A stretch of DNA of 5,362 nucleotides, taken from a virus. Its lineage: Duplodnaviria; Heunggongvirae; Uroviricota; Caudoviricetes. Below, one piece after another: positions 1 through 5,362 of the stretch. A program made the translations under genes and the position numbers. The DNA is taken from the IMG/VR virus record IMGVR_UViG_2609459792_000011; one strand, written 5' to 3'. The first letter of the stretch is position 1. Every line of letters begins with the position of its first letter. The notes beneath the pieces were generated by a model, which was not told the origin of the DNA, made no database searches, and saw only the letters and a list, made by a program, of their open reading frames with translations.

Positions 1-1031
1 GAGCAGAAATCACTGAGCACATCCCACGCCTTGCGCTGTGTGGTCAGGTACGCATTACAGGTGATGCGCGGCTCCGTGCCGCCAAAGCCGTCCGGCACTG
101 ACTGGTCGCAGTACTGGCCGATGACATACAGCGCCCATTTGTCCACATCCGCCGCACCAAGACGTTTCCCCATGCCGTAGCGTGGATGGGTCAGCATATC
201 CCACAGACACCAGGCCATGTTATTGCTGTATGCCGGCTTAAACGTTCCGTCCCAGATACCGCTGTATTGCCGAGTCTGCGGGTTATAGTTCGACGGCACC
301 TGCAGAATACGCCCGCGAAGATGATAATTACGGCTCACCTGCTGGCTGCCGAACTGCTCCGAATCCACCTGTACGCCGACCAGTGCCGTGTTCGGGTAGC
401 ACTGTTTCACATCGATGATTTCGGTGTATGACGACCAGAGCGTTTTGTTCTGCAGCTGGTCTGTGGTGCTGTCCGGCGTCATCCTGCGCATCCGGATATT
501 AAACGGGCGCGGCGGCAGGTTACCCACCACCACCGAGGCCAGATACTGCGAAGTGGTTTTGCCCTTAATGGTGATGTCTTTTTCCGTCACCCAGCCACCA
601 TTACGCTGTATCTGAACCAGCAGGCGGACTTCCGACGGATTCCGGTCCCCCTTTGAGGTGGTTTCCACCAGTGCCTGCACACCGAAGGTAAAGCGCAGAC
701 GGTCGATATTTGCAGACGTGATGGTCCGGGTAATCGGCGTGTCATACTTCACTTCCGTACCCAGCACCGTCTCGGAGCCGGAGGATTCAAATCCCTCCGG
801 CGGAGTCTGCTCCTGCTCACCGGCCCGGAACACCACCGTGACACCGGAGATATTGGTATTCCCCTCACTGTCCAGCACCGGCGTACTGTTCAGCAGCACG
901 CTTTTTAATCCATCCACCGGACCTTCAACCGGCCCTTCACTGATGGCATCAATCACACTCAGCAACTGCGTGGACTTCAGGTTGTCCTTCGCTTCGCGCG
1001 GGGTATGCCCCTTACTGCTGCCTTTACCCAT
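1..1031 (-). CDS. J: Tail tip host-specificity / central tail fibre protein J, N-terminal part (gene continues beyond window start)
   Basis: Not in the ORF track because it has no stop inside the window. Reverse complement from ATG at 1031..1029 translates MGKGSSKGHTPREAKDNLKSTQLLSVIDAISEGPVEGPVDGLKSVLLNSTPVLDSEGNTNISGVTVVFRAGEQEQTPPEGFESSGSETVLGTEVKYDTPITRT... and stays open to position 1 (343 codons). GGAG at 1043..1040 (minus strand) sits 8 nt upstream of the ATG. The N-terminus matches lambda gpJ as I recall it (memory, not alignment). Position immediately after gene I fits lambda gene order. Confidence 0.9.
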   Translation of the reverse strand, partial: MGKGSSKGHTPREAKDNLKSTQLLSVIDAISEGPVEGPVDGLKSVLLNSTPVLDSEGNTNISGVTVVFRAGEQEQTPPEGFESSGSETVLGTEVKYDTPITRTITSANIDRLRFTFGVQALVETTSKGDRNPSEVRLLVQIQRNGGWVTEKDITIKGKTTSQYLASVVVGNLPPRPFNIRMRRMTPDSTTDQLQNKTLWSSYTEIIDVKQCYPNTALVGVQVDSEQFGSQQVSRNYHLRGRILQVPSNYNPQTRQYSGIWDGTFKPAYSNNMAWCLWDMLTHPRYGMGKRLGAADVDKWALYVIGQYCDQSVPDGFGGTEPRITCNAYLTTQRKAWDVLSDFC

Positions 1032-1053
1032 TCGTCATGCTCCATAAACGACA

Positions 1054-1073
1054 AAACCGCCCGGAGGCGGTTT
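1054..1073. repeat. Perfect inverted repeat / stem-loop in the I-J intergenic spacer
   Basis: Plus strand aaaccgcc-cgga-ggcggttt: 8-bp perfect stem, 4-nt loop, read directly from the sequence. On the transcribed (minus) strand it is followed by TTTTGTCGTTTATGGAGC and then the J start codon. Confidence 0.4.
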
Positions 1074-1091
1074 CACATAAAACATTTTGCA

Positions 1092-1738
1092 TCAGCGACC
1101 AATCACCACAACCTGACCACCATCCCCTTCGTCTGCCGTGCTGATCTCCTGAGAAACCACCCGCGACCCCACACGCATTTCACCGTACAGAACAGGCAAA
1201 ACATTGCCCTGAGCAACCATGTTATCCAGTGAAGAAAAATAGGTATTCTGTTTGCCGTTATCTGTCTGGCTGCCGTGGACGTCCTGGCTTTCGGTGCCAG
1301 CATCTGCGCCACACCGCCCAGGATCATACTGGCCCCTGCCGCATACATGCCCGATACAGCCGCGGCACCCAGCCAGCCCACAGGGTTCCACCATGCCACC
1401 GCAATCAACGCCGCCCCCAGCACCACCTGAAACACACCGCCACTTTTAGCTCCCGCCAGACGCGGCACGATATGGATCACGGCACCATTTGCCAGCGGCT
1501 CATTAAGACGGGCAGATAATTCGGTTTCACCTGCATCACGCCCGGCAATGCGCACCTGATACCAGCCGTCATTCAGTTTCTGACGAAACGCCGGGAGCTG
1601 TGTGGCCAGCGCCCGGATGGCTTCGGCCCCCGTTTTCACACGAAGGTCGATGCGGCGGCCAAATCGTTGCAAATCCCCGTAAAGGCAGATGCGTGCCATG
1701 CCCGGTGACGCCAGAGGGAGTGTGTGCGTCGCTGCCAT
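1092..1738 (-). pseudogene. I: Tail tip assembly protein I, reading frame broken (N-terminal ~153 codons in one frame, C-terminal ~58 codons in another)
   Basis: ORF 1103..1738 begins MAATHTLPLASPGMARICLYGDLQRFGRRIDLRVKTGAEAIRALATQLPAF... (gpI-like) and stays protein-like to ...GGVAQMLAPKART (codon at 1282..1280), then becomes W/C/R-rich junk (TSTAARQITANRIPIFLHWITWLL...). ORF 1092..1394 is junk at its 5' end (MVEPCGLAGCRGCIGHVCGRG...) but from about 1268 reads QTDNGKQNTYFSSLDNMVAQGNVLPVLYGEMRVGSRVVSQEISTADEGDGGQVVVIGR, which is protein-like and gpI C-terminus-like. ATG at 1738..1736 is preceded by GAGAGG. Confidence 0.6.
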
Positions 1739-2379
1739 TTGTCGGTATACCTCTCTCGTTTGCTCAGTTGTTCAGGAATATGGTGCAGCAGCTCGCCGTC
1801 GCCGCAGTAAATAGCGGCATGATTCGGCACCGATGAACCAAAACAGCACAGCAGCACATCGCCCGGCTGCGCCGCTGACAACGGCACCTGATACAGCCCT
1901 GTGGCCTCCAGATTATCCAGATAGAGATTCTGACCGTTACGCCACCAGTCATCCTCGCGATGAAAATCCGGCATCTCAATCCCCGCCAGATGATAAGCAT
2001 CCCGGAACAGCGTGTAACAGTCCGTCACCCCGTGTTCAAAGCGCCGCCCGGTGAGATGCGGCACACAGCGGAACTTATGAATCGTCCCCCGGCAGACCAG
2101 CCACCACGGCAAATCACTCTGCACCTGCAGCCGCCGGTCAGCCTCACTCAGCCAGGGCAGACCACCGGGGTGGCTGTGGACCAGCGCCACAATCTCACCC
2201 TGCATCTCTGCCCGCAGCCAGTCCTCCGGCGACATCCGGAAATACGCCTCCGGCTCACCGGAGATATTCACGCAGGGAAAATATCTTTCCCCTTCCGGCG
2301 TTCTCACCACGAAGCCGCACGACTCCGCTGGCGCACATCGCCGGGCGTGCGCCAGAATCGCTGATTCTGTCTCTGTCAT
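1636..2379 (-). CDS. K: Tail tip assembly protein K (JAB/MPN-type metallopeptidase motif plus NlpC/P60-like region)
   Basis: 247-aa ORF starting MTETESAILAHARRCAPAESCGFVV...; contains HSHPGGLPWLSEAD (JAMM-like His-x-His...Ser..Asp) and a downstream Cys/His region (GVTDCYTLF ... NHAAIY) typical of the gpK family. Near-identical to lambda gpK as recalled. Starts 5 nt after the L stop; its 3' end overlaps the I start by 103 nt (1636..1738) in a different frame. Confidence 0.88.
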   Translation of the reverse strand: MTETESAILAHARRCAPAESCGFVVRTPEGERYFPCVNISGEPEAYFRMSPEDWLRAEMQGEIVALVHSHPGGLPWLSEADRRLQVQSDLPWWLVCRGTIHKFRCVPHLTGRRFEHGVTDCYTLFRDAYHLAGIEMPDFHREDDWWRNGQNLYLDNLEATGLYQVPLSAAQPGDVLLCCFGSSVPNHAAIYCGDGELLHHIPEQLSKRERYTDKWQRRTHSLWRHRAWHASAFTGICNDLAAASTFV

Positions 2380-2384
2380 GGGAT

Positions 2385-3083
2385 TTACTGCGAAAGTTTG
2401 TTAATGGAAAGGAAGCTGCCAAAGTTGCCGACATTATTGCGAAACTTACAGCCACTCAGGCATTTGCTGCATTTATCCTTCGTGATATCGGACGTCGGCT
2501 GGTCATATTCATCCGCGACCGCCGGACCGCTATAACCGCACTCATCGCCGCGATAGGTCCAGGTGCAGGTGTTGGCCAGCATGATACGTCCCGGAAAAAC
2601 AGCGCCATCCGTTTCAGTCGGCGTGGACAGTACAAAAGAGGCACTGACCGCGCTCAGTTCGCTGCACTGCTCGATGCGCCAGCGGCTGATCACCTCCTGC
2701 TCCGGATCGGCTTCGCTGTTTCCGTTGACGAAGTTCACCGCATCCAGAAAGCGGGCGTAAACCTTACGCCGGACCACCGTTCCGCCGACCAGACTCTGCA
2801 GATCTTCCGCCATCCCGGTGATCATGCCGTGCAGGTTAGAGACCGTCAGTGTCGGACGGGCAGCACTGCCCTTGCCGTTCATCTCAAATCCACTCCCCTG
2901 AATGGGATAGGCCTGATACTGCCGACTCTGCCAGGTGACAGACTCACCTTTTTCGTTCTGCTCATTACAGAAAAAGTAGCGATCCCCGCCTACCTCGGTC
3001 AGGTCGATTTCCCAGAGCACCACGCTGGCCGACTGCTCCGCACGAATGCATTCATTCAGCGTTTCCTGTTGTATGTCCTGCAT
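2385..3083 (-). CDS. L: Tail tip protein L (gpL family; C-terminal cysteine cluster consistent with the Fe-S-binding domain described for gpL)
   Basis: 232-aa ORF MQDIQQETLNECIRAEQSASVVLWEIDLTEVGGDRYFFCNEQ... ending ...DKCSKCLSGCKFRNNVGNFGSFLSINKLSQ; cysteines at TCTWTYRGDECGYSG and KCSKCLSGC. Matches lambda gpL closely as recalled. Its ATG (3083..3081) overlaps the M stop TGA (3085..3083) as TGATG. Confidence 0.9.
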   Translation of the reverse strand: MQDIQQETLNECIRAEQSASVVLWEIDLTEVGGDRYFFCNEQNEKGESVTWQSRQYQAYPIQGSGFEMNGKGSAARPTLTVSNLHGMITGMAEDLQSLVGGTVVRRKVYARFLDAVNFVNGNSEADPEQEVISRWRIEQCSELSAVSASFVLSTPTETDGAVFPGRIMLANTCTWTYRGDECGYSGPAVADEYDQPTSDITKDKCSKCLSGCKFRNNVGNFGSFLSINKLSQ

Positions 3084-3421
3084 CAGATCACCACTTCGTC
3101 AAACTGACACGAAAAATCGGTATAGGTGATATGTTCTGTCGCTGACCACGTTCGACACACCACTCTGATTTTTCTGTTAATACCCGGCGGGCGCCAAAAA
3201 AAAGATTTATAGCCTTCATGCCGGGCTAAAAATTTTTCAAATGAATCACGTTCATTCGCCTCAACTTTGAAATCACAGGTGAAAACGCGCAGAGAATGAT
3301 TAAGTCCATTTGGACTTCGTTGCTCATAACCATCGCCAAATCTTACAGTTTTTATCGATGGTTTATTTTCTGTTTTCATTCCATCCTCTGGTAACCAGTG
3401 AAATTCTTCCGTATTAGCCAC
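3083..3421 (-). CDS. M: Tail tip protein M (gpM family, divergent from lambda)
   Basis: ORF ...KTVRFGDGYEQRSPNGLNHSLRVFTCDFKVEANERDSFEKFLARHEGYKSFFWRPPGINRKIRVVCRTWSATEHITYTDFSCQFDEVVI. The VRFGDGY, KSF.W.PP and FDEVV motifs and the ~110-aa size resemble lambda gpM, with the right position between the tape-measure gene and L. The track start at 3421 is a GTG overlapping the tape-measure stop; an alternative ATG at 3379..3377 has a good GAGGA Shine-Dalgarno 5 nt upstream (98-aa product). Which start is used is unresolved. Confidence 0.8.
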   Translation of the reverse strand: MANTEEFHWLPEDGMKTENKPSIKTVRFGDGYEQRSPNGLNHSLRVFTCDFKVEANERDSFEKFLARHEGYKSFFWRPPGINRKIRVVCRTWSATEHITYTDFSCQFDEVVI

Positions 3422-4762
3422 TTAACATTCCCCCATCACGTCGCATATTTAACAGATTGCCCTGCACCCGCTGATCAACCATCCCCATAAGTGCTTTTAT
3501 TGCCTGAGGGCCAATCTCTCCATTCTGGCCGTCATTTTGAATAGTGATTTGGTATACAGGGGCATAGGTAATATCTCCGCCTCCATTACCACTTTTACTA
3601 TTAATAGCTCTGACACCAAGAGAACCATCGGAAGTTCGTGTTAATGGCATAATGGCTTCCGGTCCAGCCTCACCAAAAACACCAGCCCCTTTTGCAAAAG
3701 CAAAAAATTGCGGGGAATCATAAATACCGTTCGAATACGTGCTCAATGACGGAGACTCATAAACACCGCCCTTTGCATTCGGAATAAATTTACTAATAGC
3801 ACTCCCGATAGTTCCTAAAATCCCCCCAGAAGAACTGTTACTAATGCTGTCGAAAATCCCAGTAATTGAAGCCTTTAATGCTATTCGACTAAGATCCGAA
3901 ATCACGGAAGTAGCGAAAGAACGAAAATTTGCTTTGCCTGTCGTGACAAAATCACCCAGCGCATCGGTCATCCCATCAAACATCTGAGTCGTGGTTGATT
4001 TTATCTGCTCACTGATATCCTTAGTGTCATCCAGCCAGTTATTGAATCCCTGGGAGGCACCACTAACCCAGTCTCCTGCCTGAATATCGAGCTGCTCGTT
4101 TTTCTGTCTGACAATTTCTTTTTCCCGTTCCAGAGCATCATTCAGAGCCTGCATTTTCTCTTGAAAAACATGATCTGACATTCCACGGGATTTATCTGCA
4201 TAGTCACGTTCAAGTTGCAGACGCTGATTGTTATATCCATGTTCAATCCGCAGTAATTCCTGCTGGCGTTGCTGATTTTTATCGCCAACCCCATAACCAG
4301 CAATCTGAATATCATACCCCTGCTGACGATTATCAATCGAAGCCTGCAATGAATCACGCCATGCTGTTATTTCGGCGGATTCCTTGATTAGCCTGTTATT
4401 TTTTTCAATCGCAACATTTTTCTCCATCAACGTGGTTATTTCTTCCCGGTGTAAGAGAAGCGATTTCTGATCCTGGGTTAATTTCGATGATGGTCGTGAC
4501 TCTAGGTCGGCAATCCGCTGACGCCACTTAACCAGTTCCTGTTCAGAGGAACTTAATTTAACGGTCAACTCAGCTTGTGAACTTAGTAACGCATTCTGTT
4601 GATTCAGATGATCAATCATTCGTTGGGCTGCATCATCAGAATAATCTTTCGCCTTTGGTTGCTTTGGATCTTTATAACGCTCATTTATTTGAGCGATAAG
4701 ATTATTATATTCTTCCTTTGAATACTGATTCTTTAGCTTTTCCAGTTTTGCAAGTTCACTAG
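3414..4762 (-). pseudogene. Tail tape-measure protein (gpH-like), C-terminal ~449 codons only; 5' part displaced by IS5-family insertion
   Basis: Long minus-strand ORF with coiled-coil-like Q/E/K/L-rich repeats (…QQRQQELLRIEHGYNNQRLQLERDYADKSRGMSDHVFQEKMQALNDALEREKEIVRQKNEQLD…) followed by a Gly-rich C-terminus (…SEQIKSTTTQMFDGMTDALGDFVTTGKANFRSFATSVISDLSRIALKASITGIFDSISNSSSGGILGTIGSAI … ITIQNDGQNGEIGPQAIKAL…RRDGGMLSG) that parallels the lambda gpH C-terminus as recalled. Located directly upstream of M. The first 23 codons of the track ORF (4832..4763) lie inside the IS terminus and are not phage sequence. Confidence 0.8.
4759..4762. repeat. Probable IS5 target-site duplication (CTAG, one copy visible)
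   Basis: CTAG directly abuts the IS terminal repeat; IS5 is known to insert at YTAR tetranucleotides and duplicate 4 bp. The second copy would lie beyond the window and cannot be seen. Confidence 0.5.
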
Positions 4763-4778
4763 GGAAGGTGCGAACAAG
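4763..4778. repeat. IS5-family terminal inverted repeat (left end)
   Basis: GGAAGGTGCGAACAAG read directly; matches the IS5 terminal repeat as I recall it. Confidence 0.8.
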
Positions 4779-4785
4779 TTCCTGA

Positions 4786-5362
<577 letters not shown>

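Follow-up and report, generated by a model that had tools for sequence, protein, structure and literature searches.

A single missing T splits tail-tip gene I over two reading frames in an IS5-interrupted Rac-type prophage of Escherichia coli

Introduction

A close relative of the gene considered here is gene I of phage lambda, whose product, gpI (223 aa; PF06805), is present as chain I in the PDB entries 8IYK, 8IYL, 8K35, and 8XCG. In the lambda tail structures the N-terminal domain of gpI is unresolved and is followed by two hydrophobic helices, by a plug formed by residues 159-175, which closes the tube, and by C-terminal beta-strands threaded through the gaps between the gpJ hub domains; after the opening of the tube gpI is visible only from residue 167 on (PMC11101478).

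The same tail operon holds a well-known case of two overlapping reading frames, the programmed -1 frameshift of the tail assembly chaperones G/GT, which relies on a conserved slippery heptamer and on a two-frame arrangement conserved across phages. Its site lies upstream of gene H. Closer in sequence is the I allele encoding WP_000741576.1 ('tail assembly protein'), referred to below as A1 and found intact in E. coli FDAARGOS_497 and in phage PhiR47_1.

The locus described here has the N-terminal domain of lambda gpI and the K-I-J gene order of lambda, and its first 157 codons are identical to those of A1 except for one synonymous site, with the same flanks. Unlike both, it is split over two frames at codon 158; the shift has the same direction as that of G/GT, but neither of the two conserved features of G/GT is present, and the G/GT site itself falls outside the DNA analyzed.

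Results

Origin and gene content of the window

The stretch of DNA analyzed (5,362 bases, hereafter the window) was recognized by exact-protein look-up as the reverse complement of an entire draft contig, JNRJ01000067.1 (5,362 bp, assembly GCA_000704625.1), of E. coli strain 2-427-07_S1_C3. Repeats are located at both contig ends, IS5 on one side and the N-terminus of J on the other. The minus strand carries a lambda-type tail-tip module with the gene order H-M-L-K-I-J, found also in annotated relatives (Table 1). In the closest complete genomes ydaY adjoins the module, which assigns it to a Rac-type lambdoid prophage.

Table 1. Features of the 5,362-base window
Feature	Position	Strand	Basis
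Tail-tip gene J, first 343 codons; contig ends inside J	1-1031	-	PF24801
Gene I, both frames together	1092-1738	-	lambda gpI family
Gene I codons 159-215 and stop, -1 frame; second half of plug and beta-strands through gpJ	1092-1265	-	phrog_32 positions 152-202, phrog_4554, lambda gpI alignment, PMC11101478
Out-of-frame tail, 54 residues (RQITANRIP...VVRLW), and stop	1103-1267	-	translation
Two synonymous B-type SNPs in gene I (1245 AAT, 1233 TCT)	1213-1245	-	allele alignment
Break point, one T missing, codon 158	1265-1266	-	allele alignments and repair
Gene I codons 1-157, upstream frame; ubiquitin-like Lambda_tail_I domain and two hydrophobic helices	1268-1738	-	PF06805, 8IYK chain I alignment
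Gene K, JAB and NlpC/P60 tail-tip assembly protein, intact, overlaps I start	1636-2379	-	PF14464, PF00877
Gene L, minor tail protein L, intact	2385-3083	-	PF05100, 326 bits
Gene M, minor tail protein, intact	3083-3421	-	PF05939
Tape-measure gene H, C-terminal remnant, cut off by IS5	3414-4762	-	PF24622, PF09718
IS5-family element (ISKpn26-like), left end; transposase N-terminus from 4831; contig ends inside IS	4763-5362	+	PF05598, annotation of relatives

The IS5-family element (ISKpn26-like) is inserted in H at 4762|4763, after CTAG, and its end reads GGAAGGTGCGAACAAG (window 4759-4832); relatives without an IS at this place align only up to 4762. The same H::IS5 junction is present in four complete genomes (GDSC2239PM, H1, 19KM1803, and ECSC054), and in E. 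coli KV7 an IS5 interrupts H at about 204 nt from the site in the window. In RefSeq relatives H is recorded as partial, 'missing N-terminus'. Because the element cuts the tape-measure gene, an essential morphogenesis gene other than I carries an inactivating lesion, and the prophage was already non-viable. Further lesions occur among the relatives: H1 has a frameshift in J, and GDSC2239PM has one in the H remnant. The IS end supplies the first ~23 codons of the 472-aa open reading frame at 3414-4832.

The exact K protein is found on three contigs. It is identical to that of two other contigs (L006 and L008), and the 17-18 sites at which the DNA differs must all be synonymous. The ATG at 1738, which corresponds to the start used for lambda gpI, is situated 103 nt inside K (window 1636-1738), and the starts given in GenBank/RefSeq for near-identical I genes vary, yielding products of 178, 182, 190, 200, or 215 aa. 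In the 60-nt gap between I and J the minus strand contains a GC-rich inverted repeat, AAACCGCC-TCCG-GGCGGTTT (window 1046-1070), which is kept in relatives; it did not qualify as a terminator, and a terminator and promoter scan of window positions 900-1800 found nothing.

One T is missing from codon 158 of gene I

The initial annotation, made from the letters of the window alone, proposed that a lambda-like gene I is split over two frames by a frameshift lesion. Minus-strand translation and homology bear this out, together with the identity of the gene, which is supported by the PF06805 domain at residues 14-97 (86.9 bits against a cut-off of 23.8) and by alignment to lambda gpI: one frame runs from 1738 to 1268 and is followed by the -1 frame from 1265 to 1092. 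Read from ATG 1738, the upstream frame is gpI-like up to ...MLAPKARTSTAA, i.e., through codon 157, which ends at 1268; homology thus holds for the whole of the segment first recognized (up to ...MLAPKART) and extends four residues (STAA) beyond it. The 54 residues that follow are unrelated to gpI and lead to a stop at 1105-1103. The -1 frame, unrelated in its upstream part, becomes gpI-like from TDNGKQNTYFSS (ACA 1265-1263) and remains so to ...GGQVVVIGR and the stop at 1094-1092; the Q of 'QTDNGKQ', originally counted with the downstream part, is out of frame and coincidental. The change of frame had been placed at 1266-1282, and while the change itself is real, the break at 1265|1266 falls on the lower edge of that interval.

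DNA alignment to intact alleles located the indel exactly. Relative to both FDAARGOS_497 (99.4% identity) and phage PhiR47_1 (99.1%), the nearest intact alleles, the window shows three or five substitutions and a single gap (661 versus 662 bases), a T being absent between window positions 1266 and 1265. On the minus strand the break reads GCAGCCAG^ACAGATAAC in the window and GCAGCCAGTACAGATAAC in the intact alleles, codon 158 being AGT (Ser) in the latter (GCAGCCAGTACAGAT) as against GCAGCCAG^ACAGAT in the window; the A1 allele with its T reads GCCAGTACAGAT. Relative to the intact alleles examined, the -1 downstream frame is due to a one-nucleotide deletion and not to a two-nucleotide insertion, the other event initially considered. 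The missing T lies outside any homopolymer, and it is the only indel across the full 5,362 bases in comparison with E. coli strain H1. Its re-insertion gives a 215-aa open reading frame, from which the intact gene of FDAARGOS_497 differs by synonymous changes only; the FDAARGOS_497 protein and lambda gpI (PDB 8IYK chain I) align over their full length (E=1e-106).

Consequence for the gpI protein

The repaired product of 215 aa is collinear with lambda gpI, with the region of the two hydrophobic helices shorter by 8 residues and with STAAS in place of the lambda PRIQT before TDNGKQ. Codon 158 corresponds in the alignment to lambda residue 166 and therefore lies inside the plug segment 159-175 (PMC11101478). 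The gene occupies the position expected of the gpI family, between K (JAB/NlpC-P60) and J in a lambda-type tail operon, but its helices, plug, and C-terminal strands are not encoded in one continuous frame. With its plug interrupted at codon 158 and its 57 C-terminal residues in the -1 frame, gene I as recorded is a pseudogene member of the family.

Translation would yield the ubiquitin-like N-terminal domain, both hydrophobic helices, and half of the plug, followed by 54 nonsense residues, whereas the conserved 57 C-terminal residues would be lost. Judged from the sequence, the frameshift would keep the N-terminal domain and the helices, cut the plug, and remove everything that anchors gpI in the tip, so that gene I as written is probably null.

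The alternative frame and its traces in databases

In the repaired gene about 75 codons of the alternative frame are free of stops, and its end falls 11 nt short of the true stop. Because the tail of the upstream frame is thus open almost to the normal stop, gene callers still report an open reading frame of nearly full length, and the frameshifted product was deposited as the 178-aa KDY84816.1, a 'lambda tail assembly I family protein'. The protein family phrog_28576 (399 positions, function unassigned) matches the nonsense tail with 340 bits and the true C-terminus with 322 bits; that the former outscores the latter suggests that this family was built partly from frameshifted K-I products.

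Distribution of the junction

Among 62 loci with an I homologue, 58 have the gene, including the junction region, in one frame. The four exceptions are the window, two further copies with a frameshift, and a contig truncated at the end of the locus. Exact-pattern scans with a 37-mer and a 24-mer across the junction found neither in species-representative genomes, IMG/VR, or a metagenome collection. An 80-nt junction probe compared by BLAST with 5,426 complete E. coli genomes did not retrieve the exact junction; the best match was 96.3% identical, every match listed spans 81 bases, and the closest has three differences in 81. Among the matches listed, none of the complete genomes carrying the A-type linker allele (see below) has the junction of the window. 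Exact-product look-ups recorded the frameshifted I product on one contig only, JNRJ01000067.1, and no sister assembly of the same strain was recognizable through the exact K, L, and H-remnant proteins. Literature searches on the assembly and the strain found nothing.

The break lies where two I allele families lose register

Two families of I alleles meet at the break: A-type (..CCAGTACA-GATAACGG) and B-type, the lambda-like one (..ACAGACAACGGATAACGG), the gene signature of which is ..CACAGACAACGGATAACGG... The A-type linker is ...ACG(T/C)CCACGGCAGCCAG TACA GATAACGG... and the B-type linker is ...CCCCGCACACAG ACAACG GATAACGG..., so the segments preceding the conserved GATAACGG, TACA and ACAACG, are of unequal length and out of register. 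Upstream of this point, the window has a pure A1 sequence that differs from FDAARGOS_497 by a single substitution in 480 nt. The T that it lacks at the break is absent from B-type alleles too in the alignment; at the next two variable sites, 1245 and 1233, the window has the B-type states AAT and TCT where A1 has AAC and TCC, and from 1212 on it is again A1-like. Over 745 nt the window differs from A1 at 5 places; the gap and the two SNPs account for 3 of these and lie within 34 nt (clustering p ~0.05). The parental haplotypes are both present in IMG/VR (A1 with 25 hits, B with 13), and the intact hybrid haplotype, A linker with AAT and TCT, is absent from the IMG/VR and metagenome collections.

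Of the 5,426 complete E. coli genomes, 4,505 have matches to the I C-terminus and the J N-terminus, with a median of 3 such places in each. The lesion therefore sits where single-copy sequence passes into multi-copy sequence and where the copies differ, and its position at an A/B hybrid point raises the weight of an assembly error as its source.

Mosaicism of the K-I-J' segment

The flanks of the window (1-400 and 2401-5362) are near-identical to E. coli KV7, with 0-2 differences per 200 nt, and the K-I-J' segment between them (400-2400) is a mosaic patch matched by no single genome. Comparable replacement is seen between complete genomes with the same prophage type, and the segment is naturally exchanged among these prophages, with an A-type I in H1 and a B-type I in KV7 and GDSC2239PM. 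A copying model over 39 loci resolved the window into 24 segments over 2.6 kb, a value inside the range of complete genomes and isolated phages, and under a two-donor model (KV7 and L006) 14 sites match neither donor. A 321-nt probe from J found a best match of 98.4% among 8,717 places, as compared with 99.1% and 100% for two draft controls, which leans weakly towards a consensus artefact.

Other frameshifted I genes

The only other protein in the same 90% cluster, ENF63275.1, is encoded on AQBG01000133.1, a 2,034-bp draft contig of E. coli P0304816.9. Its I gene shares with the window the A-type left side, the break GCAGCCAG^ACA, and the alternative frame, but its right side is fully B-type (GCAGCCAG^ACAACGGATAAC) and the shift is +2 nt, not -1. 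In J this contig shows another 7 gaps of one base, and 6 of these fall on polymorphic columns, which constitute 13.6% of the columns of the panel overall (p=4e-5). Since gaps on polymorphic columns are the mark of a consensus drawn from reads of diverged copies, AQBG01000133.1 looks like a consensus of several prophage copies, and ENF63275.1 and similar entries look like artefacts in public databases. An artefactual contig with the same break implies that this is a place where a consensus of this kind is prone to go wrong.

In the complete genome CP190223.1 (7339-7993 of the extracted locus) I is uncalled between K and J, and tblastn recovers it in two frames that meet near codon 83; this is an independent frameshift, at a position different from that of the lesion in the window. 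Yet another shift is that of the protein cluster P0003 (43 sequences), caused by the loss of one C in GCCCAGGGC; several short proteins (P0003-P0007) pass from ...SSLDNMVA into the same alternative frame (RAMFCLFCTVKC...) at the equivalent of window ~1205-1215. Either a homopolymer frameshift or an error thus recurs at this place in I. Like the lesion in the window, the shift in P0003, P0004, P0005, and P0007 is due to a one-base loss within the final third of I and leads into the same open frame; it differs in lying within a C3/G3 run about 50 nt downstream and in occurring in many assemblies, while the lesion in the window is non-homopolymeric and private.

Discussion

The I gene of this Rac-type prophage, lacking one T in codon 158, is almost certainly dead as written, without any sign of recoding, and belongs to a prophage that IS5 had already rendered non-viable. 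The initial annotation had left a genuine mutation and a sequencing or assembly error as the alternatives, and these are still the only live ones.

There is about an even chance that the T was lost in the consensus of the draft assembly and is present in the cell. The contig passes from unique sequence (H-M-L-K and the I N-terminus, pure A1) into the I C-terminus and J N-terminus, a stretch of which most E. coli genomes contain several near-identical copies, and the break is placed exactly where A-type and B-type alleles cease to be collinear. Reads of a co-resident B-type copy would align at this point with staggered gaps, and a consensus of the two copies would drop the T and then adopt the B-type states at the next two variable sites. 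An error of this kind is favoured because the lesion is private, non-homopolymeric, located at the allele register break, and flanked by SNPs of the other family, and because the contig is a repeat-bounded draft that shares its break point with the artefactual AQBG01000133.1. Against it speak the presence of a single indel in 5.36 kb, unlike the error-dense AQBG contig, the mosaicism of 24 segments, which does not depart from that of complete genomes and isolated phages, and the 14 sites matching neither donor, which make a simple mix of two known donors less likely.

To a genuine loss of the T in vivo, by replication error or by patchy gene conversion with a co-resident B-type copy, a probability a little under one half can be assigned; I would then be a true pseudogene. 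With H cut by IS5 and the prophage already dead, selection on I is relaxed and the gene is free to decay. Relatives carry other lesions in J and H, I genes in other assemblies are frameshifted as well (near codon 83 in CP190223.1 and at GCCCAGGGC in the 43-sequence cluster), the rest of the contig is clean, and its mosaicism has a natural look, in keeping with the natural exchange of the K-I-J' segment. What counts against a real deletion is that it is private to one draft contig, that it would have to have occurred, outside a homopolymer, precisely on the A/B register break beside two B-type SNPs, and that the same break point recurs in the evidently artefactual AQBG01000133.1.

It is unlikely that the GCAGCCAG^ACA break shared by two unrelated isolates marks a recurrent in-vivo recombination junction between the I allele families; no hybrid with an A-type left and a B-type right side was seen among the 5,426 complete genomes probed. 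Were it so, every exchange between co-resident lambdoid prophages at this out-of-register microhomology would produce a hybrid with a shifted frame, and a small inbuilt incompatibility would restrict the modular exchange of parts of gene I.

Very improbable is the reading of the truncated I with its new 54-residue tail as a functional variant, such as a moron-like or regulatory product. The alternative frame is indeed open almost to the normal stop, so that the product was annotated as a normal protein (KDY84816.1), and the tail is matched by phrog_28576; however, the tail occurs only in a handful of frameshift-derived fragments with differing entry points, as predicted by decay or error and not by selection, it is the lost C-terminus that becomes part of the virion, and the tail operon is already inactivated by IS5.

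A programmed -1 ribosomal frameshift, or other recoding that would restore full-length gpI, has next to no chance of being correct: a shift of -1 is what would be needed, the break falls at AGA, a rare Arg codon of the kind that can favour slippage at a low level, and the lambda tail operon has -1 frameshifting elsewhere, at G/GT, but there is no XXXYYYZ heptamer either at the junction, as already reported in the initial annotation, or anywhere else in gene I, and the two-frame arrangement is not conserved, 58 of the 62 loci having I in a single frame and the junction being absent from the complete genomes, species-representative genomes, IMG/VR, and metagenome collection searched, so that programmed frameshifting, judged unlikely from the outset, is ruled out.

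The split gene is thus an ordinary pseudogene or an assembly error and not a recoding signal, and its biological weight is very small: frameshifted tail genes are what genome decay routinely leaves in prophages killed by an IS, and draft assemblies routinely contain one-base consensus errors at repeat boundaries. For annotation it means that frameshifted I products are deposited as ordinary proteins and leak into protein family resources. The lesion takes away exactly the part of gpI that, according to the recent lambda tail structures, is incorporated in the tip.
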